A DNA stretch of 64,000 nucleotides, taken from NCBI GenBank assembly GCA_964594115.1, contig CAZQLD010000005.1, positions 749 through 64,748 on the forward strand. The letters are read 5' to 3'. The translations under genes were made by a program, and so were the position numbers. The DNA comes from Candidatus Woesearchaeota archaeon (lineage in GTDB: Archaea > Nanobdellota > Nanobdellia > Pacearchaeales > GW2011-AR1). The stretch's first letter is position 1. Every line of letters begins with the position of its first letter. Below, piece by piece: positions 39,730-64,000 of the stretch. A model generated the notes under the pieces. It ran no database searches. It saw only the letters and a list, made by a program, of their open reading frames with translations, and was not told the DNA's origin.

Positions 39730-39730
39730 T

Positions 39731-42926: not shown

Positions 42927-43039
42927 TTTCCTATTTTTTTAAATTTTTCCTCTCTCTTTCAAACTTAGTTCTTTTCTTTCCTGAGTTTCTTTTCTTTCCA
43001 AGAAAAGAAAGCTACATTTATAAATATTTCCCATTTTGT

Positions 43040-43597: not shown

Positions 43598-43617
43598 CTT
43601 TTTTAGTTATTTATATT

Positions 43618-44582: not shown

Positions 44583-44623
44583 TTTCTTACTTTTACTTAT
44601 TATTCTCTATTTAAATATTTTTC

Positions 44624-45145: not shown

Positions 45146-45150
45146 TTTTA

Positions 45151-45735
45151 TTATATTGGATTCCCAGCAATATATGTTTCATCAGTCTTATTTTTAGTTA
45201 GGACAAAGAAGAAATTTTCTCCTTCTTGAAGATTAAAATCATATTTTGTTCCTAATAACTTAACTGTAACCTGGGTTCCTGGAGGATCAAAAGACGTCTT
45301 GTTCTCTACATATTTGTTTTTTCCTGAAAGTGTGAAACTGGAAGGTCCATAATCAACACTAATTGTGCCAGTATTTTCAGTTGTGTAACTTGAGGTTGTT
45401 ATATTATCTTCATTTCCATAAACAAAAACAAGTTCACTACCTCTTTCTTTTTCTTCAGTATAATAAATAAAATACTCGCTTGTGAAATTTCTGATTATTT
45501 TGGGTATCTCTATGTCAGTATAGATTCCATAATCCACAACTCTTGTTCCTTCTTCACTTAGCTCCTCGCTTAAATCATAAAATCTCACTGGTTTTTTTCT
45601 TGTGCTTATATAATTTACCAATCCGGATAACCCAACAAGAATCATAACTATTATTATTGCAGCTATGAGATAAAATTGGGCCTTTCTGTTTTTTTCTAAT
45701 AAATTTCCTTCTAAAAATTTGCCTCTTTTTTCCAT
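45151..45735 (-). CDS. pilin-like protein with a class III-like signal
   Basis: EKNRKAQ|FYLIAAIIIVMILVGL. First gene of the minus-strand pilus cluster. TTTTATATA lies ~30 nt upstream of the ATG. Confidence 0.5.
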   Translation of the reverse strand: MEKRGKFLEGNLLEKNRKAQFYLIAAIIIVMILVGLSGLVNYISTRKKPVRFYDLSEELSEEGTRVVDYGIYTDIEIPKIIRNFTSEYFIYYTEEKERGSELVFVYGNEDNITTSSYTTENTGTISVDYGPSSFTLSGKNKYVENKTSFDPPGTQVTVKLLGTKYDFNLQEGENFFFVLTKNKTDETYIAGNPI

Positions 45736-47892: not shown

Positions 47893-48781
47893 TAAATTTT
47901 CTTTTTTCTATTCTCTCTTTTAAAAATTGCGCAAGATATGGGGCAAAAGATTTATCTGTTGTTAAACTTAAAAGATCTATGTCAGCATCTATAAAAATTT
48001 TCTTAACTAAATTTTCCTGTTCAAGAGTATTTTTCTCGTATACTTTTTTTACAACCTTAGGGTCTATAATTAACTGTTTTTTAGTTGCAGGATCTTCAAT
48101 AATCACTTCTCCTTTGATATCAGGAAGTGTTTTATCCAAAGGGTCTTTTACCATAATAGCTATAGTTTCAAATCTATTTGAAAAAAAAGTTAATGCTTTT
48201 GAGTCGTCTTTTCCCAGCCTGATAAAATCAGAGATAAGGATTACGGCATTAATTGAGTCATCAAGATACTCTAATAAAAAGTCCAGTGTTTTGCTGATTT
48301 CTGAAACCCCCCCATACAATGAGGCATTAGATAAATCATCTACAAATATATCAAATTGCTTTTTACTTCTCTTTGGCATTAAGGTCTTTATTGCCTCATC
48401 ACTAAAGAGTACGAATCCAATTTTGTCACCATAGTTCATAATAACTTGTGCAAGAGCTGCAGAGAGTTCTGCTGTATACTCACACTTTAATTTTTCTGTT
48501 GAGCCAAAAAGCATATTATCACTTATATCTATAACAAACATAATATTCAAATCTCTTTCTTCTACATATTGTTTAACAAGAAGTTTATTTGCTTTTGTAC
48601 TTGCTTTCCAGTCTATATCTTTAGCATCATCATCAGGATAAAACTCTCTATAGCTATCAAACTCTAATCCTTTACCCCTAAAAATGATTTTATATATAAT
48701 CTTTTTTACTAAAAATTCCCTCATATATGCTTCAAATTCACTTACAGCCCCGGCAATATCTAAATTTAGTTTTCTTTCCAT
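47876..48781 (-). CDS. DUF58-family protein (MoxR-associated)
   Basis: REFYPDDDAKDIDWKASTKANKLLVKQYVEERDLNIMFVIDISDNM. Confidence 0.8.
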   Translation of the reverse strand: MERKLNLDIAGAVSEFEAYMREFLVKKIIYKIIFRGKGLEFDSYREFYPDDDAKDIDWKASTKANKLLVKQYVEERDLNIMFVIDISDNMLFGSTEKLKCEYTAELSAALAQVIMNYGDKIGFVLFSDEAIKTLMPKRSKKQFDIFVDDLSNASLYGGVSEISKTLDFLLEYLDDSINAVILISDFIRLGKDDSKALTFFSNRFETIAIMVKDPLDKTLPDIKGEVIIEDPATKKQLIIDPKVVKKVYEKNTLEQENLVKKIFIDADIDLLSLTTDKSFAPYLAQFLKERIEKRKFIVPKK

Positions 48782-48794
48782 TTTGAATCTAAGA

Positions 48795-50189
48795 TTAAGG
48801 AACCTTAATCTGTTCTAAAATTTCATCAATTATTTTGTCTGAATCTATGCCTTCAACCCTTGATTTATAGGATAATAGGAGTCTGTGTCTTAGTACCTCA
48901 TGGACTACATCCTTAACATCTTTTGGTACAACAAAATTTCTGCCTTGTGTTAATGCTCTTGCTTTGCTTGCTATAAATAAGGCAATAGAAGCTCTTGGGC
49001 TAGCTCCCCATTCAATATACTCTCCGTGTGCAAACTCCCTAGTTCTTGTCAACTCAACAATACTTAAAATATATCTTTTTATTTTCTTACTTAAATAAAT
49101 CTCCTTAGTTAATTTTTGCATTTCCAGTATTTTTTCAGGGTTGGTGATAGGTTTGAGGTCAAAAGTCTCAAATTTTTTAAGCGTGACATTCCTTTCCATT
49201 ATCTCATTTTCTTTGCTTATTTCAGGATATCCCATAATTGATTTAAAGAGGAATCTGTCTATTTGTGCCTCAGGTAAAGTATAAACTCCGCTTGTTTCAA
49301 GAGGATTTTCAGTGGCCATAACAAAAAATGGCAGGGGCAACTTAAACGTGGTTTTGCCTATTGTAACCTGCTTTTCCTGCATAGCTTCAATTAGAGCTGA
49401 CTGTGTTTTAGGAGGTGCACGATTAATCTCATCTGCTATTATAAAATTTGCAAAAATTGGCCCTTTAACTATTTCAAATCCTTTTTTTGGGGTATAAGTA
49501 GTTAATCCAATAATATCTGTTGGTAACAAATCTACTGTGAACTGAATTCTTTTTGACTGGCAACCGCTTACTGCAGCAAGAGCCTTTATTGCAAGGGTTT
49601 TTGCTATTCCTGGAACCCCCTCAAGCAAGACATGACCGTCACAAAGAATGCCCCTAATCAGGCTGTCTATGATTTTTTCTTGCCCAATTACTACTTTTCC
49701 AATCTCCATTTTCATTTTTATTATAATCTCAGCACACTTTTTTATTTTTTCTAAGTCTGGTTTTACTACTTTTTCTGCTTCCTCTTTCCTCTTTTTCTCT
49801 GCTTCTTCCTTTCTCCTTTCTAAGTCTTTAGCTCTCTTTTCTGCTTCTTCCTTTCTCCTCTTCTCAGCCTCCTTTTTTCTCATAGCTAACTCTTTCATCT
49901 TCATCACTGCCTCTCTTCTTCTCTTTTCTAATTCTTTCTGTTCTCCTAGCTCTTTCCTTTTTTCTCTTGCTTTTTTTATTAATTCTTTTTTTATTGCTTC
50001 AGTTTGAGGAATCTTACTAGTCTTAGGAGCTTTTTTCAATCCAAGCTCGGCTGATGCTTCTTCAAAAGCTTTTTCAGAATAACCTGATTTAATAACTTTC
50101 TTTTTTAAATTTGCAATTCCATATTGTTTATGGTACTTTTTCAAATAATTCAAAACAACTTTTTTTTCTAATTCTTCAATTTCCACCAT
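48795..50189 (-). CDS. MoxR-family AAA+ ATPase with a ~150-aa N-terminal extension
   Basis: GHVLLEGVPGIAKTLAIKALA, RIQFTVDLLPTDIIG, IADEINRAPPKTQSALIEAMQE. The N-terminus has a small helical domain plus a K/E/R-rich coiled region. Confidence 0.88.
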   Translation of the reverse strand: MVEIEELEKKVVLNYLKKYHKQYGIANLKKKVIKSGYSEKAFEEASAELGLKKAPKTSKIPQTEAIKKELIKKAREKRKELGEQKELEKRRREAVMKMKELAMRKKEAEKRRKEEAEKRAKDLERRKEEAEKKRKEEAEKVVKPDLEKIKKCAEIIIKMKMEIGKVVIGQEKIIDSLIRGILCDGHVLLEGVPGIAKTLAIKALAAVSGCQSKRIQFTVDLLPTDIIGLTTYTPKKGFEIVKGPIFANFIIADEINRAPPKTQSALIEAMQEKQVTIGKTTFKLPLPFFVMATENPLETSGVYTLPEAQIDRFLFKSIMGYPEISKENEIMERNVTLKKFETFDLKPITNPEKILEMQKLTKEIYLSKKIKRYILSIVELTRTREFAHGEYIEWGASPRASIALFIASKARALTQGRNFVVPKDVKDVVHEVLRHRLLLSYKSRVEGIDSDKIIDEILEQIKVP

Positions 50190-50286: not shown

Positions 50287-53200
50287 TTAACCTCTTTTGA
50301 TTTTAATTCTCTTATAAAGATAGTATAAAAGCAACGCTGCTACTAAAACAATAGTGGCGTAGGTTAAGTATTTGTATAATTGGTTTTCAAATGTCTCTTT
50401 TTTTCTTGGCAGGCCTGGCTGGGCTATGGCATATCTGCATGCGTCTATGGCTTCTCTTGCTTTCATAAGAGCCTCTGTATATTTCCCTCTTTCATAATGA
50501 TCCCACCCTTCTTTTAATATTTCAGTAATTTCAATACACTCCGGGTTTTCTGCTATGAACTCTTCTGTAAATAATAATTTTTCCAAAACCTCTGTTTTAT
50601 TAGCTTCTTTTACAGTAAGCTGAATCTTGCCCCAGTCATTATACTCCGGACTTTTTACAGTAGCATTTATTGTTATCTCATATAAACCCACTTCATCTGT
50701 ATCTATATCTACAGTTAAGGTAACATTTTTTTTATTTCCTGTTAGAAGCGAAGAAATATGGGTTTGGTCAAAGGAAACTTTTATATCATTTCTGATTCTA
50801 CCGTCTTTTGCTACAACAGCTGTTAAATCTATTTTATAGAGATTTGTTCTTCCTGGGTTGCTTAAGGTTATTGGCAATATCACTATATCTTTTTTATATG
50901 CAGAAATCGGGTCAGGCAAAAGTATTTTTAACATAACAGGAGTTGCTGAACCTCCTCCTCCACCGCCACTAGATGGAGTAGGAGTTTGGGAAGGAGGGGT
51001 AAATCTGACTTCAAACTGATTGCTTAATGCACTGGTCAAACTATAACCGCTTCCATTTAAGTCAGTTGCGTTGATTATTAGTAATTCTGTTACAGTAGTA
51101 GAAGCAGATAAAGTCAAAATCCAGTTTGAGACACTTGAAGAAATAGCACTTGAATTAGCATTGCTTATCACACTGAAATCAACTGTTTGATTGTATGCAG
51201 TATCCCTATAATCTTCATCTGAAAAATAATTGCTAAGGTTTATTGTAATATCAGTATTATAGTCTGATTGCATATCTCCCAAATAACTTGAGAAAACAAC
51301 AGGAGCATTTGTATGATTAATAGTTACATTCCAGCTTATTGTTGTATTAAACTCACTAAAGTTAGGAGGGTACACAATCAAAGTCAGATTCCTTTTTACT
51401 CCATAAGTTTCATCTGTAAAATTTGGAATAAACTCCCAGGTTAGATTTGTGTTATCACCATAATAACTCAGATTATACTTCAAAACATTAGTGCTATTTG
51501 CATTTTCAATATAAAATTCATATGTTAGATTATCTCCTGCAGAATGATTTGCTCTAAATGTTAAATTCGAGGTTATGTTTTCTGCTAAATGAAATTCATA
51601 ATCTGATGCAGGAAAAGTAACATTCGGGTAGTCATAAACATAAATCCAAAAGTCAGCTGAGTCTTCTGCCCCATTAGAATCATTTACAGTTATATTTAGA
51701 TGATAAGACCCTCCTTGCGTTAAATTAAAAGTAATATTTATTTCTCCTGTTGTTGAGTTGAATATACTTGAGTTAAAAATATTTTCTCCTGAGTTAAAAC
51801 CATAACTGAATGTAAAATTAACATTCCCGGATTCTGTAGAATTGCCGTCTTCAGTATCTGTTGCATTTATTCTATAATAAAGACTTCTGCTTATGGCAGA
51901 GGTTTGGTTTGTCAGGTTCATTAAAACAGGAGCATGATTAATTCCCAAAATAGTCAAATTAAAAGAAAGAAAATCACTTTTCATGCCACCCATTGTTGTA
52001 TTGCCATTATCAGTAACATTTATTGTTATATTATACTCTCCAATATCTGCTTTTCTTGGAGTGAAATTTGCGTCAAACTTGCTCCTATTATCTCCTTCAT
52101 AAGCAGGAAACCCAGAATCAATAATAAAATTAAAAAGAGTAGTGTTTGGTCCTTCTATTGTAAGATTAATTACCAGGTTTTCATTATAGAAATTCTTCTG
52201 GCTTAAAGGTATTTTAAAATCATCATCCTGAATCCACAACCATATTGTTGTAACATTGTCCTCTGAACAGTTTATATTAGACACAGAGTCAACAAAAGCA
52301 TTATCTGCCTCAATAGGCCTTTTTATATAAGGGGCTTCATTAACATTATAAACAGTAAAATTAAATGATTTTAAACTGTCAAGCATACCATCACTTGCAT
52401 TAATTGTAACATTGTGAAAACCAACATCCAAATCATCAGGAGTAAAATTAATAATTCCTGTTGTGGGATTAATGCTAAAAGAAGAGAAATTATTATTGAC
52501 TGTAAAAGAAAAAGTTATAGCATCATTGTCAGGGTCGCTAACATTTTCAGAAAAATTAAAATAAGTTTCATTATTATCATAAATAACAAACACTTCAGCC
52601 ATTGAAGCATTCCATTCAGCAGGATTGTCACTTGAAATTTCAATTACAAACTCCTGCTCTGCATAATTATTGGCAGTATCTGTGACATTTACATTAATTG
52701 TATAATTTCCCTCCCCCCAACTCAATCCTGTATTAAAATCAATATTAATTTTAGCTGTTGTTTGATTACTTAAATTAGAATAGCTTGAAATAAAAACCCA
52801 GCTTGTGTTTGAAGCAAAACTCAATACTTCATTCTTAACATTTTTATCTGGAACTAATAAATCATTATCAGTTGCATTAACATAAATTGTCTTATTTTCA
52901 TAAATTGTATAATTGTTTATTATATCTAAACTTACAGAGTCTTCAGTATTATTAACAAAAAACCAGAATATACTGGAATTCTCCCTTATAGCACCCCCTC
53001 CTCCAGTATCTCTAACTGTTATATTTACTGACCAATTCCCAACCTCTGTATCGCTTGTTGTGAAGTTAACTATTGCAGAGGCATTATAGCCTGTAAATCC
53101 ATTAACTGTTACAGTTATACTGCTATCTGAATTATTAAACATAAACCAAGAATAATTGCTTATAAAAGTCAAATTATTTATCTCATCAATATCTGTTGCA

Positions 53201-54435
53201 TTAATTCTGCAAGTAAATAGATAATTTTCTGTTGTATTTCTCTCATTGTCACAAACATAATTAAAATAAGGAGCTGAATTTATATTTAAAACTGTAAAAT
53301 TAGCAAGCTGCTCTGTTGTTTTATTTCCCAAGCTGCTGTTATCCATGACACTAAAATTAATAATATAGGAGCCAACATCATCCCTTACAGGGATAAAGCT
53401 TATGTTTAATATTCCAGTAGTTCCATTAAAAGTATACTGAGAGGAATTAAATAAAGTGCAGTTTGTATTATTTCTGCTGGACCACTCTGCAGTTGCGCAT
53501 TCTATAAAGCTTATATTTAAAATAAAAGGGATATCATTCTCTTCATCAGTTATATTAATAATTTCTTCAAAGAATTGTGTTATATTAAATGACCAATTTT
53601 GCAAATTAACAAAAACAGGCGCATCATTTACCGAAGTTATATTGACATTAAGTATGGCTGTTTGCAGATTACTTTCATCTTTAACACCAAGTTCTATGGA
53701 TTTAGGGCCAGTATTTTCATTAAGAGTAACATTTATAATTAACATACTTGTTGTTTCATTAAAAGTGTAGTTTGTTAAAGTAGTGTTTGAAGAAGAAACC
53801 ACGCTATACTCTAAAATATTTTTATCATTATAATCATCTTCACTAACATTAGCAGTAAAATTATAAGGGCATAAAATATCTTCTGTGCAGTTTAAAATGT
53901 CGGCATTCGTATCTATGTCCCCATCTATATAACCTCCAGTTGTCTTTAAAATAGCAGGCGGGGTATTTGTTATTAGAAAATTATCTGTAATATTAATAGA
54001 AGATAAAAAACTTGCATTAGTACAATTAATTTCAAAATTAAAATTTTTTCCATCTCCATCATAATTAAAGCTTCTGTTATATTCAAATGAAGTTAAGCTT
54101 GTATTATAAGACATATTTGTCCAAGTTGTCCAAGTTCCAGTTTCATTAAATCTTATAGTACAATTGCCACTAGAAATTGGATTGCCTGTTGTTTCATTTG
54201 TGTAATTTGCATAAAAATAAACATTCCAGCTGTTTATAGTTTTTGCTGGAGGACCTTTATAACTACAATACTCACTACAATAAGTATATTTTGTACCTCC
54301 GTCAGTATCATCCCAGATTGTTAAATTCACCCCATTTGAAGAGCCAGAAGTTTGAGCAATAGTTCTGACTAGCAAAAGACTGACTAATACTAAGAATAAA
54401 ATCATAACTGCAATTGTTTTTACTTCTTTTTTCAT
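50287..54435 (-). CDS. giant (1382 aa) cadherin-like/Ig-like repeat surface adhesin, sequon-rich, C-terminally TM-anchored
   Basis: Signal peptide. Repeated domain junctions VNDAPVF, INSAPYF, VNEAPYI, INHAPVL with acidic D-x-D/E loops. Very many N-x-S/T sequons. Poly-Gly hinge PSSGGGGGGS. CARDB-like domain, helical region, TM YATIVLVAALLLYYLY. Confidence 0.75.
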   Translation of the reverse strand: MKKEVKTIAVMILFLVLVSLLLVRTIAQTSGSSNGVNLTIWDDTDGGTKYTYCSEYCSYKGPPAKTINSWNVYFYANYTNETTGNPISSGNCTIRFNETGTWTTWTNMSYNTSLTSFEYNRSFNYDGDGKNFNFEINCTNASFLSSINITDNFLITNTPPAILKTTGGYIDGDIDTNADILNCTEDILCPYNFTANVSEDDYNDKNILEYSVVSSSNTTLTNYTFNETTSMLIINVTLNENTGPKSIELGVKDESNLQTAILNVNITSVNDAPVFVNLQNWSFNITQFFEEIINITDEENDIPFILNISFIECATAEWSSRNNTNCTLFNSSQYTFNGTTGILNISFIPVRDDVGSYIINFSVMDNSSLGNKTTEQLANFTVLNINSAPYFNYVCDNERNTTENYLFTCRINATDIDEINNLTFISNYSWFMFNNSDSSITVTVNGFTGYNASAIVNFTTSDTEVGNWSVNITVRDTGGGGAIRENSSIFWFFVNNTEDSVSLDIINNYTIYENKTIYVNATDNDLLVPDKNVKNEVLSFASNTSWVFISSYSNLSNQTTAKINIDFNTGLSWGEGNYTINVNVTDTANNYAEQEFVIEISSDNPAEWNASMAEVFVIYDNNETYFNFSENVSDPDNDAITFSFTVNNNFSSFSINPTTGIINFTPDDLDVGFHNVTINASDGMLDSLKSFNFTVYNVNEAPYIKRPIEADNAFVDSVSNINCSEDNVTTIWLWIQDDDFKIPLSQKNFYNENLVINLTIEGPNTTLFNFIIDSGFPAYEGDNRSKFDANFTPRKADIGEYNITINVTDNGNTTMGGMKSDFLSFNLTILGINHAPVLMNLTNQTSAISRSLYYRINATDTEDGNSTESGNVNFTFSYGFNSGENIFNSSIFNSTTGEINITFNLTQGGSYHLNITVNDSNGAEDSADFWIYVYDYPNVTFPASDYEFHLAENITSNLTFRANHSAGDNLTYEFYIENANSTNVLKYNLSYYGDNTNLTWEFIPNFTDETYGVKRNLTLIVYPPNFSEFNTTISWNVTINHTNAPVVFSSYLGDMQSDYNTDITINLSNYFSDEDYRDTAYNQTVDFSVISNANSSAISSSVSNWILTLSASTTVTELLIINATDLNGSGYSLTSALSNQFEVRFTPPSQTPTPSSGGGGGGSATPVMLKILLPDPISAYKKDIVILPITLSNPGRTNLYKIDLTAVVAKDGRIRNDIKVSFDQTHISSLLTGNKKNVTLTVDIDTDEVGLYEITINATVKSPEYNDWGKIQLTVKEANKTEVLEKLLFTEEFIAENPECIEITEILKEGWDHYERGKYTEALMKAREAIDACRYAIAQPGLPRKKETFENQLYKYLTYATIVLVAALLLYYLYKRIKIKRG

Positions 54436-54683: not shown

Positions 54684-56693
54684 TTAAACAACCTCCTTGA
54701 TTTCATTTTTAATTTTAAATATTTTGAATAATTTCATTACTATAAGAACTCCAAGCAATATTGCTAGAACCATCAAAATATATCTTGTGGGGATTTTAAT
54801 TTCAAAAGGTTTTTCATCTTCTCCGCAATATCTCAAACAAGGCCCTCCGCAATCAATTTCTTTTTCCCCTTGGTTTTTTATTCCATCAAAGCAGGTTGGA
54901 CATGGCGGACAAGGACCCCAGCAATCTACTAAGATTTCGCAATCTCCATCATGACAATTTTTAATATCATCATCACAACTTGGATTTCTTATATAAAAAC
55001 AATCCTGCATTTTTAGGGGCTCACTAGAGGAGCTATTACAATAATTTAAATCAAAACACTCCCTAATTTGAAATCCGCACTGGCTTTCTTCCCATTCTTT
55101 AATTAAACAACCTCTTCTAATACTTTTGTAATCTTCCTCAGATAAAAGGCCGATTTCTAAAGATTTATTTGCATTTTGGCATATCCCCCACGTGTTGCAA
55201 ACCCATTTTTCAGAACATCCGCCAACTATCTCTGTTCCTTTTTCGATAACAGAAGGAGTGCATTCAACAAAATTAACATCCAAATCCCACTGAACAGAAT
55301 CAGTTAACAAACCATCAGTTACCTCAGCTTTAACTACATGCCCTTTTGAAATTCCGCAACCAAAAATATATTCAAATTCATCCAAACCCCCTCTATTAAA
55401 ACCAGAAGTATATTTTTTTAATTCATTATCAACATACCAATATATATCAAGAGGAGTTCCATCTGGATCATACATATCCAAACTAAAAGATATGACATCA
55501 GTTCCAATTACATTTAAATCTAAATTAGCAGGAGTATACTCAATAATTGTAGGTTGTTTGTTTTCTTCTGTAACAGTCAAACTAAAATCATCACAAGAAG
55601 TTATACTTCTTCCGTACTTTTTGCATACAGCAAATATTTTCTCAGAAGGATTTATTATACCTTTATCAGTAACACAAACAGTAACATTATGGGTTCCTAA
55701 ATGGCTACTATCTGGAGTAAACTTCATCCCACCTTGAGAATCTATGTCAAATAAATGTTGGCCTGAAAAATTTATATTAAATACCAAATTCCCAGAATCT
55801 TGATTGCCATCTTCAACATCATCCACATTAACTTTATAATCTATAATCTTATTCTTCTCTCCCCCTAAAATTTTTGTTTTAACTCCTATTGGTTGGATGG
55901 CAGGAGGATTGTTTGTTTCTATAACTGTTATTTCTATCTGTTCAGAATCAACAAATTGCCCGTCATTTACGAAAATAGTTCTTTCATAAGTTTTAGATCC
56001 TGCTCCAATCCCTCCCGCATCATTTTTGTTGAGATTTCCTGAAATTATTTTAAATTTAAGAAGGCTTTCTCCGTTAGAAGGCCAATAGGACGTTGGATTA
56101 ATATAAAATATCTCTTGGGGTTTAATATAGGCTTCAATTGCTCCAATATTTCTTTCTTCATCAATATCTTTTACACTGAAAGAATATGAGATGGGAGAAC
56201 CTTCACAAACAAAAATTTTAGGGGCAAGATCTTCAATAATCGGAGCAGAATTAGAAACAGAGATAAAAAATTCAGTACTGTCATTTGCACTATTTCCTTC
56301 ATTGTCTTCTGCATAAACAATTAATTTATTCCCCCACTGGCCTACTTCAATTGTTATATTTGGTGTGAAAGGTATATCTTCTCTAACTATTCTGCCATGT
56401 TTTGAATCAATAAGAGTATACCGCCAGCTATCCACTACAAAATTTGCTGAAACATTCAAGTCAAGGATATAAGGGGGTTTAATTTTATCTCCAAAATAAT
56501 AAGTCTCAGCTTCAGGGCTTGCAATATTGATAAATCTTTCTTTCGTAATAATACTTATGTTTTCTGTATCAAGGGCCTTTCCAGTAACAGTATAAAAATG
56601 AGGCACAAGATAATTTAGAGCAACAATCATGCTAATTATCCCCAGTATTGCAAAAAAATACAGAACTAATATTGTCCTCTTTTTACTGATCAT
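54684..56693 (-). CDS. cadherin-like repeat surface protein with a Cys-rich C-terminal module and TM anchor (paralog A)
   Basis: Collinear with the next ORF: NVSANFVVDSWRYTLIDSKHG, SNSAPIIEDLAPKIFVCEGSPISY, VDDVEDGNQDSGNLVFN. The C-terminus CDDDIKNCHDGDCEILVDCWGPCPPCPTCFDGIKNQGEKEIDCGGPC is followed by a TM. Confidence 0.75.
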   Translation of the reverse strand: MISKKRTILVLYFFAILGIISMIVALNYLVPHFYTVTGKALDTENISIITKERFINIASPEAETYYFGDKIKPPYILDLNVSANFVVDSWRYTLIDSKHGRIVREDIPFTPNITIEVGQWGNKLIVYAEDNEGNSANDSTEFFISVSNSAPIIEDLAPKIFVCEGSPISYSFSVKDIDEERNIGAIEAYIKPQEIFYINPTSYWPSNGESLLKFKIISGNLNKNDAGGIGAGSKTYERTIFVNDGQFVDSEQIEITVIETNNPPAIQPIGVKTKILGGEKNKIIDYKVNVDDVEDGNQDSGNLVFNINFSGQHLFDIDSQGGMKFTPDSSHLGTHNVTVCVTDKGIINPSEKIFAVCKKYGRSITSCDDFSLTVTEENKQPTIIEYTPANLDLNVIGTDVISFSLDMYDPDGTPLDIYWYVDNELKKYTSGFNRGGLDEFEYIFGCGISKGHVVKAEVTDGLLTDSVQWDLDVNFVECTPSVIEKGTEIVGGCSEKWVCNTWGICQNANKSLEIGLLSEEDYKSIRRGCLIKEWEESQCGFQIRECFDLNYCNSSSSEPLKMQDCFYIRNPSCDDDIKNCHDGDCEILVDCWGPCPPCPTCFDGIKNQGEKEIDCGGPCLRYCGEDEKPFEIKIPTRYILMVLAILLGVLIVMKLFKIFKIKNEIKEVV

Positions 56694-56747: not shown

Positions 56748-58775
56748 TTATTTTTCAATATCTTTTAGTTTAGGGCGTTTTAATAATTTAATCACTATAA
56801 ATAATACTAATAATATAATGATTAATATTAAGAAATATCTAAAAAGGCTTCTTCCTAAAGGTTTTTCAGAAGGGCAAGGAGGGCAAGGTCCTCCACAATC
56901 AATTCCTTCTTCTCCTTGGTTTTGTATACCATCAGAGCAAGTTGGACAGGGCATACAAGGTCCTCCACAATCTACTAAGACTTCACAAGCTCCATCATGA
57001 CAGTTTTTAATACCATCATAACAGTTTGCCTTTTTAGTATAGTAACATCCCTGAACTTCTAATGGTTTTTTCAAAGTAGTATTGCAATAGTGAACATCTA
57101 AGCACTCCCTAATTTGAAATCCGCAATTCTCATTCTTCCAACCATTTATTTTACAGGTTTCTTTAACCATTCTATAATTTTCCCCAGATAAAGTTCCTGT
57201 TTTTAGAGCAGTTTCTGCATCTTGGCAAAAGCCCCAGTAACCACACCCCCATTTTTCAATACACAAAGGTGTTACAGCACCACCCCCCCCACCTCCAGGA
57301 GGGATTTCAGGAGGAAGCTCTACATTAATGACAGTTATATTCCATGTAAGAGAAGCATTTAGCAATCCATCAGTTATTTCAGCAGTAAGGTTATGATATC
57401 CAGCACTATCATAATCAAAAAACTGTAGAAACTCATCAAAATTCCCCCCTCCAATTACTCCAGAGAGAAATTTATCCAAACTACTATCAAGATACCAATA
57501 AGTATCAGGAGCAGTTCCATCTGGATCATACATAGTTATATTAAAATACAAAGACTGCCCTTCATTTACAATAAGTGTTAGATTAACAGGATAATTAGAA
57601 GTTATTTCAGGAGGTCTGTTTTGAGTTGTGACAGTTAAACTAAAATTATTACATGAAGTTATATTGCTTCCATCTTGCCCGCATAAACTTATATTTTGAT
57701 GCGGATTTGCTATTCCTCTGTCAGTAATACAAACACTTATATTATAAACCCCTATATCAGTTAAATTAGCAGTAAAGTTCATTACTCCATTCTGACTTAT
57801 ATTAAATAAATTAACTATAGCTCCTGTAGAATTTCTAATTGTCAGGTTAAATACCAAATTCCCAGAATCTTGATTGCCATCTTCAACATCAGACACATTA
57901 ACTTGGTAGTAAAAAGTACTGTTCACTCCTTGTGTCCAAATTGTCTGAACACCAATATCTATGATAGAAGGGGCATTATTTATCTCTATAACTGTTATAT
58001 TTGTCTGTCTGGAATCAGCATACTGTCCATCATCTACAGAAACATTTTCTTCATAAATTTTATATCCTGCATTAGTTCCTCCTGCATGAGCCTTACCAAG
58101 ATTTCCTGAAAATATTTCATAACGGTTTGTTGTTAAATTAATATTTTTAGAATAAACTACATAAAAAGGACTTTGCGGTCCTGTCGGATTAATACTTGCA
58201 GAAGGAGCACTTTCATCAACATCTGTTACATTAAAAAAATACGAGAGATAAGAGCCTTCACAAACAAAAATTTCAGGGGCAATATACTCAATAAGAGGAG
58301 CTGAATTTGGAATAAAAACAAAAAATGAAACATTTTCATTTGCAATCACCCCTAAACTATTATTTGCATAAACAAGTAATTTATTTGACCACCTAACAGC
58401 ATTAATTGTTGTGTTTGGTGTAAAAAAAACACCAGTATTAATTGTTACGCCATGCTTTAAATCTATTAAATCATACCACCAGCTATCTACTACAAAATTT
58501 GCTGAAACATTCAGTTCTATTGTATAATTAGGATCTCCTATGCTAAAATTATAGGTTATATTTTTTGGACTTGTAATATTAATTATATCACGAAGCCCTT
58601 CAACAGTAATAAAAATTCTTCCTATAGAAGTCACAGAACTCCAAATAAAATTTTTTAAGCTGATAAAAGCAGTTAAAAAACCCTTATCTGGGACATGATA
58701 CTTTAAAATCCAAAACATATTTAGCAACATCATCAAAAAACAGGCCACTAAAATGTATTTCTCTCTTTTTTTCAT
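56748..58775 (-). CDS. cadherin-like repeat surface protein with a Cys-rich C-terminal module and TM anchor (paralog B)
   Basis: NVSANFVVDSWWYDLIDLKHG, PNSAPLIEYIAPEIFVCEGSYLSY, VSDVEDGNQDSGNLVFN. Poly-Gly hinge PPGGGGGGA. CYDGIKNCHDGACEVLVDCGGPCMPCPTCSDGIQNQGEEGIDCGGPC, then a TM. Confidence 0.75.
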   Translation of the reverse strand: MKKREKYILVACFLMMLLNMFWILKYHVPDKGFLTAFISLKNFIWSSVTSIGRIFITVEGLRDIINITSPKNITYNFSIGDPNYTIELNVSANFVVDSWWYDLIDLKHGVTINTGVFFTPNTTINAVRWSNKLLVYANNSLGVIANENVSFFVFIPNSAPLIEYIAPEIFVCEGSYLSYFFNVTDVDESAPSASINPTGPQSPFYVVYSKNINLTTNRYEIFSGNLGKAHAGGTNAGYKIYEENVSVDDGQYADSRQTNITVIEINNAPSIIDIGVQTIWTQGVNSTFYYQVNVSDVEDGNQDSGNLVFNLTIRNSTGAIVNLFNISQNGVMNFTANLTDIGVYNISVCITDRGIANPHQNISLCGQDGSNITSCNNFSLTVTTQNRPPEITSNYPVNLTLIVNEGQSLYFNITMYDPDGTAPDTYWYLDSSLDKFLSGVIGGGNFDEFLQFFDYDSAGYHNLTAEITDGLLNASLTWNITVINVELPPEIPPGGGGGGAVTPLCIEKWGCGYWGFCQDAETALKTGTLSGENYRMVKETCKINGWKNENCGFQIRECLDVHYCNTTLKKPLEVQGCYYTKKANCYDGIKNCHDGACEVLVDCGGPCMPCPTCSDGIQNQGEEGIDCGGPCPPCPSEKPLGRSLFRYFLILIIILLVLFIVIKLLKRPKLKDIEK

Positions 58776-58823: not shown

Positions 58824-59282
58824 TTAATTTTTCCAGATATATCTTTTTATAATAACAGAAACATTTCCTGTATAATTTCCATAACTTGTGTCAAGAGGGG
58901 CATATGCAGATACACCTATTTTTTTTGTTTGACCTTCAGGAACTACTGACTCAACAGGATCTATAAATCTTTCCATACCTTGTTTAGGTATTATTTCAAC
59001 TTTGATATCCTGGCCATAACCATTGTCTATTATTACTCCCCTTGTTGAACTTCCCCCAGGAGAAATCATTCCAAACCTCAAGCTGTCATTGCCTAAATCA
59101 AATCCATAATGGTCAGAAACAATTAAATAAGCCCCCATTTCTCTTTCCTCAAGGATTCTTGATGAATTAATCATTTGAAGCGATGAAAAAATAAAAACCA
59201 ACAAGGCTATGATAAACAAGGCTAGTGAAAAAAGAAACTTCAAATAAATTGTTTTCCCCTTTTCTAATCTATCTTTTCCCAT
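58824..59282 (-). CDS. small N-terminally anchored beta-sandwich-like protein (152 aa)
   Basis: TM LKFLFSLALFIIALLVFIFSSL, then LRFGMISPGGSSTRGVIIDNGYGQDIKVEI, which is the xFGxxxxGxxxxxxxxxxN pattern common in PapD/ASH-like folds. Overlaps the upstream gene by 14 nt. Confidence 0.55.
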   Translation of the reverse strand: MGKDRLEKGKTIYLKFLFSLALFIIALLVFIFSSLQMINSSRILEEREMGAYLIVSDHYGFDLGNDSLRFGMISPGGSSTRGVIIDNGYGQDIKVEIIPKQGMERFIDPVESVVPEGQTKKIGVSAYAPLDTSYGNYTGNVSVIIKRYIWKN

Positions 59283-60423
59283 TTTTTATTTTTTCTTTTC
59301 TTTTCTTTATTATTATCCAGGTGATTATAAATATTATTGTAATTAAAACTATAATTCCCACAATACCTGTAACAATAACCCAGATTGCTATTTTTCTTTT
59401 AATAGTTATATCCGTTATTTTTATTGTTGAGGCTCCCTCATAAAATATTGTTATGTTCATCTCATAAACACCTGGCTTAATACCTGCTGTATCCAAGTAG
59501 CCAGTTAGGTTTTTGCTCTGCCATTTATCCAAACTTTCAGAAACTGTTTTGAACTCTGATAGTTTATTAGTTTCATTCCCTTTTTCATAAACAAATACCT
59601 CAGCATGAACATTCTCTACTTTATTATTCCAATTGCTCTCAACCTCAACATAGAATTCATTTAGCTCATTATAATAAGCCTCTTTTGTCCAGTTTAAAAT
59701 ATCAACAAATAAACTGCCAATTTTAAAATGTGTTTCTTTTCTAACTATTCTCTCAGTTCCATAATCTAGGATTGCAGTAGCATTATAATCTCCTGTACCA
59801 TATCTGCTTGAATTTATAATTTTTTGAAATGTCCTTTTCCCCTGACTTTCTACAATCCCCCGCCCAAGTTCAATTGTTTCTATATATCTATCATCATAAA
59901 GAGACAGCTCTGCTGTTAATTCTGCGACTATATCATTTTCGCCAAGACTTGAAACTTCAGTATTAAATGTTAAGTTTTCTCCTTCATTTACATTCTCTAC
60001 ACTAAACTTTTCAATTTCAGCATATTTTCCGGGATAAGGCACAAAAACAAGAACAACCACATTTATTGCTGTTAAGGTTCCTAGCCCTACTCCTTCTGGG
60101 GGTTTTTCTTTTACACCAATAGATATCATATTTTCTCCAGGAGTATCTATTTTATCAGGAAACCGGATAGTTGCTGTAAAACTTCCTGCACCTATAATAC
60201 TCTCTTTATCCAATTCCACATATTTAGCAAGAGGACCTGTAGCAGAAATTTCAATCTCTCTTTCTGGATTCTCTTCGTATACAGTATATTTAATCGATGT
60301 AACTAAACCTGGTTTAAAGTTTATATTAGTTATTGCTGGGCTTAAACCCACAGCATAAACCCAGTTTAGGTTTAGTATAAAAAAGACTGCAAAAAATAAA
60401 ATTATCGCCCCTCTTTTTTTCAT
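59269..60423 (-). CDS. signal-peptide + multi-beta-sandwich + C-terminal-TM surface protein (paralog of 62658..63899)
   Basis: AVGLSPAITNINFKPGL directly after the signal. A conserved LVFVPYPGKY junction. C-terminal TM IAIWVIVTGIVGIIVLITIIFIITWIII plus a basic tail. Confidence 0.65.
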   Translation of the reverse strand: MKKRGAIILFFAVFFILNLNWVYAVGLSPAITNINFKPGLVTSIKYTVYEENPEREIEISATGPLAKYVELDKESIIGAGSFTATIRFPDKIDTPGENMISIGVKEKPPEGVGLGTLTAINVVVLVFVPYPGKYAEIEKFSVENVNEGENLTFNTEVSSLGENDIVAELTAELSLYDDRYIETIELGRGIVESQGKRTFQKIINSSRYGTGDYNATAILDYGTERIVRKETHFKIGSLFVDILNWTKEAYYNELNEFYVEVESNWNNKVENVHAEVFVYEKGNETNKLSEFKTVSESLDKWQSKNLTGYLDTAGIKPGVYEMNITIFYEGASTIKITDITIKRKIAIWVIVTGIVGIIVLITIIFIITWIIIKKRKEKIKNGKR

Positions 60424-60695
60424 GGTTTAACTTATGAAAATTGCTTTTTATATCTTACGTTTTCTAGTGCTGCTGTGTTAAAAACTCTTGAGGTTTTAAA
60501 AAGCAATAAAATTCATAATTAATCGAAGAATTTTTAGATATTAATAAATAAAAAATTAGGAATATTGCTATAAGTTGGCTTTAAAGAACCTATTTTTTCC
60601 ATAAGCAAGATTATGGAAGTATTGTCCCCTTTAACTAAATATTGCAATAACCCCTATATATAAGGGGTGTTGCAGAAAAATTTAAAAATAAAAAA

Positions 60696-61346
60696 TTAAG
60701 ATTTGACAACACCTGTTGCAGTTATTGTATCAACTAAAGCGCCTTTTAAAGAATCCTCTGGTACACGAAGATAAAAGTCTATTCTTATTGAATTATTATT
60801 CGCTACATACATCAAAGGATGACAAACCATTGCAGTTGCAGCTGTTGACGTGCCTTCATAAAGGTCTAAACCCTGTGTTGTTCCGCTTGTTGATGTCTCT
60901 GAATCATTCCTGCAAGCCCATGTCTCCCCAGGCATCATACTAATGTTCCACTGATATAATGGGCCGCCTGCACTTGCTCCACCTATAAAAGAAGCTGCTG
61001 AAGCTCCTGCACTTAAATTAACACTTAGGTTCACGTTTCCAATATTATCTAATATAAGTTTCTGACCTGAAAAAGTCCAGTTACCATCTGTACAAGCATC
61101 AGTATCTGTTTGTAAGGTTGAATTTGTCACACCAAGGTCTACTTTTCCTGAACCAAAATTCACTTCTGGAAAAGAAAAATTAAGATTAGCTGCTGATTCA
61201 ACTGTCAGATTAACATATCCTGCATCTGAAGCCAGTCCAGAAAGAACATCTCTCAAATCTGAAATCTTCATGAGAGTCAAAGAAAAATTAACCAATGTCA
61301 CTAAAACCACAACAACAGTTATTATAGTTAAAACACTGCTTTTCAT
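60696..61346 (-). CDS. secreted beta-rich protein, 216 aa (copy A), unknown family
   Basis: N-terminal hydrophobic anchor/signal. Sequon-rich, Gly/Ser/Thr-rich. Two Cys pairs. C-terminus IRIDFYLRVPEDSLKGALVDTITATGVVKS. Identical to copy B except for the last residues (VVKS vs VVRT). Confidence 0.65.
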   Translation of the reverse strand: MKSSVLTIITVVVVLVTLVNFSLTLMKISDLRDVLSGLASDAGYVNLTVESAANLNFSFPEVNFGSGKVDLGVTNSTLQTDTDACTDGNWTFSGQKLILDNIGNVNLSVNLSAGASAASFIGGASAGGPLYQWNISMMPGETWACRNDSETSTSGTTQGLDLYEGTSTAATAMVCHPLMYVANNNSIRIDFYLRVPEDSLKGALVDTITATGVVKS

Positions 61347-61347
61347 C

Positions 61348-61536
61348 TTAACCTGATGGCACTAGAGCTGGTTCTACATAAAGTCTGATTTTTGCAGACC
61401 CAGTGTCTACTGTCTTTGATTCTCCAATTACATTAATCGGAGTACTGATGTTCAAACCAATTGTCATAATCACAGAAAGTGCTGAAAGCAAGACTGCAAC
61501 AATTAAAAGTACAACAATTATTTTTTCACTCACCAT
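61348..61536 (-). CDS. 62-aa signal-anchored mini-protein (copy A)
   Basis: MVSEKIIVVLLIVAVLLSALSVIMTIGLNISTPINVIGESKTVDTGSAKIRLYVEPALVPSG. Its stop lies 1 nt from the downstream ATG. Confidence 0.55.
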   Translation of the reverse strand: MVSEKIIVVLLIVAVLLSALSVIMTIGLNISTPINVIGESKTVDTGSAKIRLYVEPALVPSG

Positions 61537-61711
61537 TTTCCATCTCTTTTTAAAATTTAATTATTAATATACCGAAGCAAGTCCCTTTTATAAACATTTC
61601 GTTTTGGAATTTCATTACTATGTTTAGATTAATTTTTTAACGAAGACAAATAATTCAGATTTTAATAAAATAAAGAATAAGTAAATGATGCTGTCTATAA
61701 AAATAAAAAAA

Positions 61712-62362
61712 TTAAGTTCTGACAACACCTGTTGCAGTTATTGTATCAACTAAAGCGCCTTTTAAAGAATCCTCTGGTACACGAAGATAAAAGTCTATTC
61801 TTATTGAATTATTATTCGCTACATACATCAAAGGATGACAAACCATTGCAGTTGCAGCTGTTGACGTGCCTTCATAAAGGTCTAAACCCTGTGTTGTTCC
61901 GCTTGTTGATGTCTCTGAATCATTCCTGCAAGCCCATGTCTCCCCAGGCATCATACTAATGTTCCACTGATATAATGGGCCGCCTGCACTTGCTCCACCT
62001 ATAAAAGAAGCTGCTGAAGCTCCTGCACTTAAATTAACACTTAGGTTCACGTTTCCAATATTATCTAATATAAGTTTCTGACCTGAAAAAGTCCAGTTAC
62101 CATCTGTACAAGCATCAGTATCTGTTTGTAAGGTTGAATTTGTCACACCAAGGTCTACTTTTCCTGAACCAAAATTCACTTCTGGAAAAGAAAAATTAAG
62201 ATTAGCTGCTGATTCAACTGTCAGATTAACATATCCTGCATCTGAAGCCAGTCCAGAAAGAACATCTCTCAAATCTGAAATCTTCATGAGAGTCAAAGAA
62301 AAATTAACCAATGTCACTAAAACCACAACAACAGTTATTATAGTTAAAACACTGCTTTTCAT
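61712..62362 (-). CDS. secreted beta-rich protein, 216 aa (copy B)
   Basis: Identical to 60696..61346 except for the C-terminal VVRT. Confidence 0.65.
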   Translation of the reverse strand: MKSSVLTIITVVVVLVTLVNFSLTLMKISDLRDVLSGLASDAGYVNLTVESAANLNFSFPEVNFGSGKVDLGVTNSTLQTDTDACTDGNWTFSGQKLILDNIGNVNLSVNLSAGASAASFIGGASAGGPLYQWNISMMPGETWACRNDSETSTSGTTQGLDLYEGTSTAATAMVCHPLMYVANNNSIRIDFYLRVPEDSLKGALVDTITATGVVRT

Positions 62363-62363
62363 C

Positions 62364-62552
62364 TTAACCTGATGGCACTAGAGCTGGTTCTACATAAAGT
62401 CTGATTTTTGCAGACCCAGTGTCTACTGTCTTTGATTCTCCAATTACATTAATCGGAGTACTGATGTTCAAACCAATTGTCATAATCACAGAAAGTGCTG
62501 AAAGCAAGACTGCAACAATTAAAAGTACAACAATTATTTTTTCACTCACCAT
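62364..62552 (-). CDS. 62-aa signal-anchored mini-protein (copy B)
   Basis: Identical in translation to 61348..61536. Confidence 0.55.
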   Translation of the reverse strand: MVSEKIIVVLLIVAVLLSALSVIMTIGLNISTPINVIGESKTVDTGSAKIRLYVEPALVPSG

Positions 62553-62657
62553 TTTCCATCTCTTTTTAAAATTTAATTATTAATATACCGAAGCAAGTCC
62601 CTTTTATAAACATTTCGTTTTGGAATTTCATTACTATGTTTAGATTGATTTTTTCAA

Positions 62658-63899
62658 TCAGGCTTTAATAACTCTTCCGCTTGCTTTTGGTTGTTTTTTC
62701 TTTCCCATAAATCTTCTGAAGAATACAAACCACGCAAGATTTACCACCAATAATATTATAACTAAAACAAGTAGAATTGTTGTCACACTAATTCCTTCTC
62801 TTCCTTGTGGCCTTATAGCATAGCCTACTCCAGTAATATCTAAGCTGTCTTCACTGACTTTCAAAATTAAGTTCCTGTCAGTTGATTTCTGTCCGTATCT
62901 AACCATTAGTTTTCCATTGTATTCTCCTTCTTCTACTCCAACTGTGTCCCAGTATGCAATTAATTCTTTCTTGCTTAATGCAGGAATGTTTTCAGTAGCT
63001 GACTTAAGATCAGCCATTACCTGCTCTTCATAATTATAAACAAGCAGGTTGGCAAAAACACTTTTTAACTCTTCATTATATTTATTTTCAACAAGAATCT
63101 GAAGCTTTGCAATTTGCCCTAACTGGAAGTTATTAACTAGTATGCTCTCTATGCTTAATATTTGGCTTCCAATTGCAAACTGTTTTTCAAATGACTTGCT
63201 TTCTTCATCATAAAAAACAGTTACTTTTGCAAGATATCCTCCAGGAGGAACATTAATCTGCCATTTTGCAGATAGCTCTGTTCTTTTTCCTGCTCCAATA
63301 GCTGCATAATCTGTTTCTAGTGTTTCTACTTTTTCATTTAATTTTGTATAAATATCAATTACTGCTCTTGCTTCGCCTATTCCTAACTTTCCTCTGTTAG
63401 TCACAGGAACAATTAAAGTGGCAGTAGAGTTCTGTTCTGCATCTAAAACATTTAAGTCAGCATCTATGCATTTTCCAGGGCAAGGAACATAAATGTGTAA
63501 TTGAGAGACAACAGCCACAGTTGCACCAACATAGGTTCCCTCATCAGAAGCTTTTGGAATTTCTAAAACAACAATTTCTGCTGTATGCAATCCAGGGTCT
63601 TTTGCGATTCTATCAGGCAATTTAACTTTATACTTAAAGTGCTTAGATTCTTCGCTTGGCAAAAATTCAACCATATTTTCAAATAAAGTTACTGAATCAT
63701 TTAAGTCTCCTTGGACCATAAGCAATACCTGCATATTCTTATGTTCATTATTCAGGACAGAAAATGCAACTTCCTGCTCTAATCCTTGCTTATAATCTAA
63801 GGTAGTTCTACCAGGAGTTACTCCAAGAGCATCTACCTTAGGGATAACTAGCATAGCAAACAAGCTTACTAATATTATAATTAACAATTTCTTTTTCAT
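62658..63899 (-). CDS. signal-peptide + multi-beta-sandwich + C-terminal-TM surface protein (paralog of 59269..60423)
   Basis: ALGVTPGRTTLDYKQGL after the signal. LHIYVPCPGKC junction. C-terminal TM TTILLVLVIILLVVNLAWFVFF plus a basic tail. Confidence 0.65.
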   Translation of the reverse strand: MKKKLLIIILVSLFAMLVIPKVDALGVTPGRTTLDYKQGLEQEVAFSVLNNEHKNMQVLLMVQGDLNDSVTLFENMVEFLPSEESKHFKYKVKLPDRIAKDPGLHTAEIVVLEIPKASDEGTYVGATVAVVSQLHIYVPCPGKCIDADLNVLDAEQNSTATLIVPVTNRGKLGIGEARAVIDIYTKLNEKVETLETDYAAIGAGKRTELSAKWQINVPPGGYLAKVTVFYDEESKSFEKQFAIGSQILSIESILVNNFQLGQIAKLQILVENKYNEELKSVFANLLVYNYEEQVMADLKSATENIPALSKKELIAYWDTVGVEEGEYNGKLMVRYGQKSTDRNLILKVSEDSLDITGVGYAIRPQGREGISVTTILLVLVIILLVVNLAWFVFFRRFMGKKKQPKASGRVIKA

Positions 63900-64000
63900 T
63901 CTTGCCTCCCAGTGTATTTTCCTGAATCCTCAATTTCTTCTGATTGATTTGGCTCAAGTATAATATATCCAATCATGGTACCTTCCTTGCTTTTAGTAAC
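63896..64000 (-). CDS. C-terminal end of an upstream gene (runs off the right edge), translationally coupled to the 413-aa gene
   Basis: The frame is open from the window edge: ...VTKSKEGTMIGYIILEPNQSEEIEDSGKYTGRQE*. Its TGA overlaps the downstream ATG (ATGA). Confidence 0.4.
   Translation of the reverse strand, partial: VTKSKEGTMIGYIILEPNQSEEIEDSGKYTGRQE

Follow-up and report, generated by a model that had tools for sequence, protein, structure and literature searches.

A conserved surface adhesion module of Pacearchaeota and Woesearchaeota and a candidate donor-strand assembly mechanism

The DNA analyzed here is a stretch of 64,000 nucleotides from contig CAZQLD010000005.1 of a Candidatus Woesearchaeota archaeon (the window). 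It ends in a string of minus-strand genes for secreted and membrane-anchored proteins, which we name by their lengths in amino acids (aa). Central to this string are a 216-aa pilin-like subunit, a 62-aa mini-protein and a 413-aa membrane-anchored protein. These genes belong to one conserved module, for which we show homologies, domain architectures, synteny, gene amplification and fold class. An earlier note, made from the letters of this DNA alone, had proposed an undescribed surface-filament or adhesion module; the adhesion module is well supported by our results, and a donor-strand fiber is plausible only. Our preferred and still tentative reading is that the genes encode a surface adhesion appendage of Pacearchaeota and Woesearchaeota built by donor-strand complementation, in which we infer the polymerization, the cleavage site and the strand insertions.

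The module recurs widely in a fixed arrangement. We scanned one genome per Genome Taxonomy Database (GTDB) species with the 413-aa family and obtained 37 loci, all in metagenome-assembled genomes of Pacearchaeota, Woesearchaeota or Nanoarchaeota. A common gene order is near-universal among them: a giant protein (up to >3100 aa), then the 157-, 413-, 62-, 216- (one to four copies), 384- and 152-aa proteins, followed by a 675-like protein (one to three copies) and a 1382-like protein. Components were counted over the 20 loci with at least 4.5 kb downstream of the 413-aa gene or the 33 loci with at least 1.5 kb upstream of it (Table 1). This order of eight or more genes, conserved in 37 species-level genomes, supports the fiber reading. 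In the window, the module runs from at least position 54684, and probably from 46954, to beyond the right edge. The earlier note missed that it reaches well beyond 58824, and likewise missed the giant's C-terminal 216-like domain and the WxLIP-like character of the 413- and 384-aa proteins.

The identities and the numbers of N-X-S/T sequons in Table 1 fit a conserved, shielded base (413, 157) that would carry exposed, fast-evolving, glycosylated proteins (216, giant, 675). The sequon richness that had been noticed in the 216-aa protein is thus real, and the enrichment in the exposed 216-aa, giant and 675-aa proteins, with none in the 413-aa protein, also supports a fiber.

Table 1. Occurrence of module components at the surveyed loci, median identity of homologs to the window protein, and sequon counts
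Component	Loci with component	Median identity	Sequons observed	Sequons expected
Giant protein	31/33 (upstream set)		67	27.6
157	28/33 (upstream set)	53%
413		62% (many at 70-81%; 60-81% across Pacearchaeota)	2	2.1 (no enrichment)
62 (mini-gene)	16/20 (downstream set); directly upstream of first pilin-like gene
216	18/20 (downstream set)	32%	10	3.4
384 (second 413/384 paralog)	20/20 (downstream set)	34%
152	16/20 (downstream set)	31%
675		46%	29	8.6

Homologs of the module proteins are all annotated as "hypothetical." Pfam and NCBIfam scans of the module proteins gave no family above threshold, including S-layer families. Nothing meaningful came from searching PDB sequences with profiles of the 216, 413, 157 and 384 families, and a homolog search with the 384 family found only unannotated DPANN proteins without precomputed Pfam hits. 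The Pfam, NCBIfam and PDB sequence searches produced no match to an enzyme or to a characterized non-filament family. Enzyme and toxin functions were rejected for lack of matches. Our literature search found no description of the cluster, nor of donor-strand fibers or adhesin clusters in DPANN or Pacearchaeota.

The 216-aa protein has 78 close homologs, and its family comprises 1878 unannotated clusters at 50% identity (E ≤ 1e-3), nearly all of them stand-alone proteins of about 200 aa. It consists of a transmembrane or signal helix (residues 2-35), an invariant N-terminal extension, GYVNLTVES, and a glycosylation-rich beta-sandwich with two invariant Cys. Across the family, the alignment and motif statistics give I-[ST]-G-[YF]-A-T-S-T-G-x-A-N-L-T-V-E-S after the helix, of which N, L, T, V and E are essentially invariant. 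The S/T-G-x-A stretch obeys the -3/-1 rule and is probably a signal peptidase I site (SGLA/S, where the slash marks the predicted cut here and below). In the AlphaFold2 (AF2) monomer model, with a predicted local distance difference test score (pLDDT) of 88.5, the helix is followed by unpaired residues 36-54, which include N-L-T-V-E, and then by ten strands. A Foldseek search of the PDB with this model put TLP-1b on top (probability 0.97, E = 7.5e-3) and gave no strong match; the list is dominated by donor-strand-exchange subunits, namely TLP-1b, TLP-1a, FimA, Caf1, CsuE, CsuA/B and CanA. The likeness to known fibers drawn in the earlier note holds, weakly, for CanA and for chaperone-usher subunits (FimA, Caf1, Csu) as structural neighbors, and does not extend to homology with TasA, AbpA or PapD. 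The subunit gene has its own TATA-like box and T-run terminator. Apart from these results, 13 of 74 family members have a sub-threshold match to FeS_assembly_P (best E = 2.9e-4), which we set aside as a local compositional or motif resemblance.

The giant proteins combine Laminin_G_3 (LamG, lectin) and bacterial immunoglobulin (Ig)-like domains according to Pfam, and their C-terminus is always formed by exactly one domain, about 150 aa long and homologous to the mature 216-aa protein over its whole length, with no membrane anchor. Aligned to the 216 family with HHalign, this domain scores a probability of 99% (E = 2e-18 over 139 columns). Its hidden Markov model (HMM) matches the 216-aa protein of the window at 7e-6, and the subunit HMM matches 12 giants at 1e-7 to 1e-13 (HMMER). 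Note that the homology needs the family alignment of giant C-termini, as a single giant C-terminus reaches a probability of only 2% against the 216 profile. At three loci (L037, L038 and L044), small proteins at the "216" position are nearer the giant's domain than the window 216-aa protein. The fiber reading is supported by the single 216-like domain at the end of every giant and by the conserved presence of mini-proteins upstream of the first gene for a subunit. Some giants (L035 186-4301, L036 7202-8590, L043 3786-9962 and L044 27-9341) start with a conserved motif, YKKYIKRxGKxYGPYY..S.R...GKV...YLG, which is probably cytoplasmic and is followed by a membrane helix and an I-T-G-x-A/V site. 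This motif bears on whether giants are cleaved or anchored at their N-termini.

In the 62-aa mini-protein, a variable linker joins a membrane helix to a conserved strand, G-x-[VI]-x-[LVF]-x-[VI]-[EN], whose register matches that of G-x-A-N-L-T-V-E in the subunit. The mini-protein has neither the S/T-G-x-A motif nor a body. Compared profile to profile with the subunit N-terminus, it reaches a probability of 95% (E = 3e-8), with the transmembrane helix bearing much of the score. The mini-protein thus resembles a membrane-anchored copy of the subunit's N-terminal strand, in line with the earlier note's view of it as strand-sized. The strand motif is found in 12 of 23 members versus 0.19 in shuffles, and to judge from these sequences it is clearly selected within the family. 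To our knowledge, a strand-only subunit serving as a minimal anchor or terminator has no known counterpart.

The 413-aa protein is the most conserved component. Its AF2 model (pLDDT 79) has a cleavable signal (VDA/LG), three beta-sandwich domains, a C-terminal transmembrane helix and a basic tail; a hairpin in domain 1, formed by strands 103-114 and 128-138, is long and conserved and has a disordered tip. Its paralogy with the 384-aa protein, already recognized in the earlier note, is clear from BLASTP (25% identity over 346 aa, E = 4e-21) and from profile-profile comparison (E = 1e-67), and the shared motifs are present (ALGVTP/AVGLSP, IYVPCPGKC/VFVPYPGKY, C-terminal transmembrane helix with basic tail). 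Foldseek matches of the 413-aa model are generic tandem Ig/ASH proteins, among them Enterococcus faecium WxLIP (9i25_C, 9i1y) at E = 3e-7, as well as the S-layer protein csg of Haloferax volcanii (7ptp, E = 2e-7), a generic Ig-domain match; the list holds no specific TapA match. WxLIP_HBD (PF11797, DUF3324) is the commonest Pfam match of the 413 family, found on domain 2 in 27 of 60 members (HMM positions 37-131 of 138), and WxLIP_PGBD (PF06030, DUF916) is found in 9 of 60. In the 384 family, WxLIP_HBD matches 3 of 21 members (best E = 2e-5). All of these matches in both families lie under the Pfam gathering score (14-19 bits vs 28.9), and profile searches of PDB sequences with the two families returned no WxLIP. 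We regard the 413-aa protein as a candidate WxLIP-like base or strand donor. Its family also has a conserved Cys pair at the junction of domains 1 and 2, V-P-C-P-G-K-C (residues 135-141; 63477-63497), where the 384-aa paralog has Tyr at both positions (V-P-Y-P-G-K-Y); the pair may be a disulfide or a metal site specific to the conserved paralog.

Two smaller anchored proteins accompany this pair. The domain of the 152-aa protein, in which the motif quoted in the earlier note is present (LRFGMISPGGSSTRGVIIDN), is akin to domain 1 of the 413 family (HHalign probability 94.7%, E = 6e-8). The 157-aa protein enters the window from the right, and its full product was taken from a sister contig (L002), with the window translation identical to the C-terminus of the L002 open reading frame (ORF). 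It has an N-terminal transmembrane helix and two small beta subdomains, with no Pfam or PDB match and no relatives found outside the module; its profile match to the pilin-like family (probability 78%) is suggestive only.

The proposed mechanism draws on fibers of the chaperone-usher, TasA and AbpA types, in which the N-terminal strand of one subunit completes the fold of its neighbor, adhesins attach via a subunit-like C-terminal domain, and accessory strand donors prime, cap or anchor the chain (PMC9245690; PMC10151520). The 216-aa protein would be the abundant glycosylated structural subunit, exported by the Sec pathway and then cut at S/T-G-x-A. Its freed N-terminal extension (G-x-A-N-L-T-V-E-S) would insert into the beta-sandwich of a neighbor, producing a linear fiber. 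The giant LamG-rich adhesin would enter the chain through its single C-terminal 216-like domain, as FimH or CsuE does in a chaperone-usher pilus. The mini-protein would offer a membrane-tethered strand that caps and anchors, or else primes, the basal subunit, acting like TapA or a minimal chaperone or terminator. The 413-aa protein, its 384-aa paralog and the 157- and 152-aa proteins would together make a WxLIP-like base, anchored in the membrane, for holding or docking the subunits, and the 675-, 669- and 1382-aa proteins, which have similar N-terminal strands, may plug into the same sockets.

The make-up of the module parallels that of the archaeal bundling-pilus operon, in which a 204-aa pilin is encoded next to a 410-aa protein with three beta domains, the pilin having a signal peptidase I site and a donor strand with a glycosylated sequon (PMC9245690), and it parallels the donation of a strand by TapA (PMC10151520); both parallels support the fiber reading.

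Several observations weigh against strand sharing. The putative cleavage site of the 216-aa protein lies about 13 residues past the hydrophobic core, unusually far for signal peptidase I, and the subunit may therefore stay membrane-anchored. Its confident monomer model may represent a complete fold. The Foldseek matches of this model are weak (E = 7.5e-3 or worse, TM-scores 0.3-0.5), and Pfam and PDB sequence searches revealed no link of the family to TasA, AbpA, Fim or Csu. With the transmembrane helix removed, the strands of the mini-protein and the subunit give the expected alignment but not a significant one (P = 0.012 over 13 columns); therefore, we claim only a common motif register and not strand-level homology. 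In the giants, the equivalent N-I-S-I-Q-S resembles the last strand of a preceding FN3-like domain. The subunit-type strand motif is also found on the 675- and 1382-aa proteins and on an 895-aa secreted protein encoded at 29-32 kb. Instead of donating a strand, the motif could serve as a generic leader or form a domain's first strand.

A generic leader is at the heart of one alternative, under which the genes encode co-regulated glycosylated envelope proteins (adhesins and proteins of a cell coat or associated with an S-layer) with a common secretion leader typical of the lineage and without strand complementation. The N-terminal motif would then signal export, processing or glycosylation, and the mini-protein would be a leader-only remnant or a small membrane protein. 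We consider this unlikely. It is true that a transmembrane helix followed by S/T-G-x-A and G-x-h-x-h-x-h-E precedes unrelated large proteins inside and outside the module, that N-L-T is itself a sequon and the exposed proteins are sequon-rich, that the archaeal S-layer protein 7ptp is among the generic Ig matches of the 413-aa model, and that the beta-sandwich models are confident as monomers. However, a remnant would hardly be kept as an intact, translationally coupled gene with a selected strand motif in 16 of 20 species, and the strict single 216-like domain at the C-terminus of each giant implies that it docks in a specific way. Gene order is fixed and the 413-aa protein retains 60-80% identity, which speaks for a machine and not a loose coat.

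Docking without polymerization is a serious rival, which we rate as somewhat less likely than the fiber. Here, the domain-1 hairpin of the 413- or 384-aa protein would insert into the 216-like domain and so display the subunit and the giant non-covalently, with no fiber. The precedent is the WxL (Csc) clusters of Firmicutes (Lactobacillales and Bacillales), which encode a small protein that is nothing but the domain, a large one that carries it C-terminally and a partner of signal-Ig-Ig-transmembrane type, the WxLIP hairpin being predicted to insert into and complete the WxL beta-sandwich (PMC10599100). Our module follows the same logic with its docking-domain-only small protein, its large adhesin-like protein with that domain C-terminal, and its partner of signal peptide, Ig-like domains, C-terminal transmembrane helix and basic tail; the recurrent sub-threshold WxLIP_HBD and WxLIP_PGBD matches, which are in colinear order, the Foldseek matches to WxLIP chains and the long hairpin with its disordered tip also favor this alternative. 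On the other hand, the WxLIP matches stand beside generic Ig families (CARDB, Rib), the 74 members of the 216 family have no PF13731 match (E up to 1) and no dual W-x-L motif, and no WxL chain is among the top 50 Foldseek matches of the subunit model. The organism is an archaeon without peptidoglycan, the ligand of WxL. The partner has three Ig-like domains instead of two and occurs as two paralogs, and the module adds the 157- and 152-aa anchors and the 675 family. The mini-protein, the invariant N-terminal extension and the amplification of the subunit gene to as many as four copies would go unexplained. We favor a polymer over simple docking because the subunit has a putative promoter and terminator of its own, up to four gene copies, an invariant unpaired extension and fiber subunits as structural neighbors.

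The module combines features of donor-strand fibers and WxL clusters, and it belongs to none of the chaperone-usher, TasA/AbpA and type IV pilus families. TasA-TapA of Bacillus and AbpA-AbpB of Pyrobaculum likewise have a subunit of about 200 aa whose signal peptide is followed by an N-terminal (donor) strand with an N-X-S/T sequon, a neighboring protein of some 400 aa that has three beta domains (here 413/384, there the 410-aa AbpB), no usher, and an accessory strand donor that starts or anchors the fiber, as proposed here. The differences are that PF12389 is not significant (3 of 74 members of the 216 family, best E = 0.0037), that TasA and AbpA are not among the top 50 Foldseek matches, and that the 216 fold looks Ig/pilin-like and not like the TasA jelly-roll; also, the strand donor proposed here is a 62-aa transmembrane mini-protein, the 413- and 384-aa proteins have C-terminal transmembrane anchors, and there is a giant adhesin with a subunit-like C-terminus. 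We rejected membership in the TasA/AbpA group, since neither sequence nor fold matched.

Chaperone-usher pili (Fim, Pap, Caf1, archaic Csu) resemble the module through FimA, Caf1, CsuA/B and CsuE as neighbors of the 216-aa model (E = 0.05 or worse) and through two-part adhesins with a C-terminal subunit-like domain (FimH, PapG, CsuE), a likeness of architecture and not of sequence. Components reduced to a strand could have the role of chaperone G1 strands or of the terminators FimI and PapH. In contrast, Pfam and NCBIfam scans of the module proteins found no usher (PF00577) and no PapD-like chaperone (PF00345/PF02753), and membership in this class was rejected. Further differences are a single-membrane archaeal organism with no periplasm, the lack of sequence homology and an adhesin of thousands of residues.

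The TLP-1a/b fibrils (CryoSeek; PDB 9ikj, 9ikk) are the best Foldseek match, nearly full length and with probabilities of 0.96-0.97. Their protomer is lollipop-shaped, and its N-terminal strand completes a different protomer's Ig-like domain, which is a feature of TLP-1. E-values are 7.5e-3 to 1.1e-2 with a TM-score of about 0.35, there is no sequence similarity, and TLP-1 is attributed to bacteria (Flavobacteriales-like). The cannulae of Pyrodictium are archaeal chaperone-free donor-strand fibers, and their subunit CanA (9h8b) reaches a TM-score of 0.50 normalized to the target. This match is weak (E = 0.32), and cannulae are calcium-dependent tubes without a similar gene cluster.

A large part of archaeal diversity belongs to DPANN, whose members cultivated to date live attached to host cells. 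We know of no attachment structure in Pacearchaeota or Woesearchaeota. The module is a concrete candidate for one, since it is conserved across species-level genomes and pairs giant adhesins that have lectin domains with a small structural subunit whose gene is amplified. One can go further and see in it a host-attachment organelle, a donor-strand fiber free of usher and chaperone with the LamG adhesin at its tip, the 62-aa strand-only protein at its root and a WxLIP-like base; we offer this as a speculative extension. If true, it would place WxL clusters, TasA/AbpA fibers and chaperone-usher pili on a single continuum of evolution and mechanism. The strand-only membrane mini-protein, the two WxLIP-like anchors and the giant LamG adhesin with its subunit-like C-terminus are the original features of the system. 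If strand sharing does occur, donor-strand assembly would reach a third major archaeal lineage and gain a membrane-anchored strand-only protein, and the poorly understood WxL clusters of Gram-positive bacteria might have archaeal relatives. The 216-aa subunit, the mini-protein and the 413-aa base are defined targets for metaproteomics, antibody labeling, electron cryotomography and in vitro assembly.

The layout of the locus in the window is given in Table 2. The ORF listing contains all seven co-directional genes of the earlier note, the eighth does enter from the right edge, and each of the seven proteins begins with a hydrophobic segment. The tight packing that had been described holds inside sub-operons and breaks at gaps of 105, 175 and 272 nt between them, which contain TATA-like boxes and T-runs. 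Coupling of the mini-gene and the subunit gene was read correctly, with 1 nt between stop and start (TAAgATG).

Table 2. Features of the module and its surroundings in the window
Feature	Position	Strand	Remarks
VWA/BatA gene	46954-47892	minus	Pfam scan
DUF58 gene	47876-48781	minus	Pfam scan
MoxR AAA+ ATPase gene	48795-50189	minus	Pfam scan
1382-aa secreted Ig/cadherin-like protein gene	50287-54435	minus	Pfam scan
669-aa protein gene, paralog of 675-aa protein	54684-56693	minus
675-aa surface protein gene	56748-58775	minus	Part of conserved module
152-aa protein gene	58824-59282	minus	ORF listing; N-terminal transmembrane anchor and one beta-sandwich domain
384-aa protein gene	59269-60423	minus	14-nt overlap with 152-aa gene; architecture as in 413-aa paralog
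Tandem duplication 62+216	60690-62656	minus	Two 951-nt copies, period 1016 nt, 4 mismatches
216-aa pilin-like subunit gene, copy 1	60696-61346	minus	ORF listing
62-aa mini-protein gene, copy 1	61348-61536	minus	Product identical to copy 2
TATA-like box TTTATAAAA, mini-gene copy 1	61586-61594		Identical to copy 2 box
216-aa pilin-like subunit gene, copy 2	61712-62362	minus	C-terminus ...GVVRT
62-aa mini-protein gene, copy 2	62364-62552	minus	Transmembrane helix, variable linker, conserved strand GSAKIRLYVEP
TATA-like box TTTATAAAA, mini-gene copy 2	62602-62610	minus	About 58 nt upstream of mini-gene; read from sequence
413-aa membrane-anchored protein gene	62658-63899	minus	Most conserved component
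157-aa protein gene, 3' end only	63896-64000	minus	Last 34 codons in window; stop overlaps 413-aa start (ATGA)

The two 62+216 pairs seen in the earlier note are a near-identical tandem duplication in this assembly, segment 60690-61640 equaling 61706-62656 save for the 4 mismatches, two of which fall in the last codons of the 216-aa gene. Each unit consists of a TATA-like box, a mini-gene and a 216-aa gene, with a T-run beyond each 216-aa stop, just past the end of the repeat; the boxes are putative promoters. L001, a sister assembly of this organism made from a different sample, contains only one pair (1486-2326), and the discrepancy may reflect strain-level copy-number variation or an assembly difference. 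That the duplication is an assembly artifact, and the pair of pairs biologically meaningless, appears improbable to us. Such an artifact would be in keeping with the single pair of the sister assembly and with copies that differ at only 4 of 951 positions; yet assemblers usually collapse near-identical tandem repeats and do not create them, the copies differ at their 3' ends and are separated by a unique 65-nt spacer, and other species have two to four subunit genes, including 62-216-62-216 arrays comparable to that of the window (L009, L017, L029). An array of two pairs is thus plausible as biology, with the exact copy number of this strain putative, and an artifact would bear on copy number alone and leave the module itself unaffected.

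Further genes lie downstream of this array. The 675-aa protein has Ig-like repeats and a Cys-rich region between an N-terminal leader, which includes a pilin-like strand (GRIFITVEG), and a C-terminal transmembrane helix; the match of its N-terminus to the pilin strand (probability 88%) is suggestive only. Both it and its 669-aa paralog have 23-24 Cys, located just ahead of the C-terminal membrane helix in a region of repeated C-x-x-G-x-x-N-x-x-E-x-x-x-D-C-G-G-P-C. The 1382-aa protein has no C-terminal anchor, and its predicted mature N-terminus, QTSGSSNGVNLTIWDD, is like the pilin N-terminal extension. In this protein and its orthologs, a canonical signal peptide (TIA/QTSGSSNGVNLTIWDD; …ANLTIWDD) precedes a similar strand, which supports a strand at the mature N-terminus. 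The 1382-like gene is syntenic at L008, L009, L027, L029, L034 and L044. At the distal end of the gene string lies a MoxR/DUF58/VWA-BatA triad, also found next to the module at the divergent loci L041, L043 and L044; its association with the module is looser, and it may be a maturation system for surface proteins.

Two other loci of the window lie apart from the module. An 895-aa secreted protein, encoded at 29349-32036, has a predicted mature N-terminus (ASA/SFTTGNFSIETS) that resembles the subunit extension motif, and the motif may therefore serve more widely in the organism. A separate archaeal type IV pilus locus at 37728-45735 encodes a T2SSE ATPase (41397-42926), two T2SSF platform proteins (38878-39729, 39731-41131), along with several small proteins that bear class III signals (KKG/ISP, KKG/VSP, KKG/VSL). 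As the earlier note had stated, class III signals are confined to this locus and occur on none of the module proteins; type IV pilins were rejected as an identity for them, and the surface module is distinct from the type IV pilus locus.

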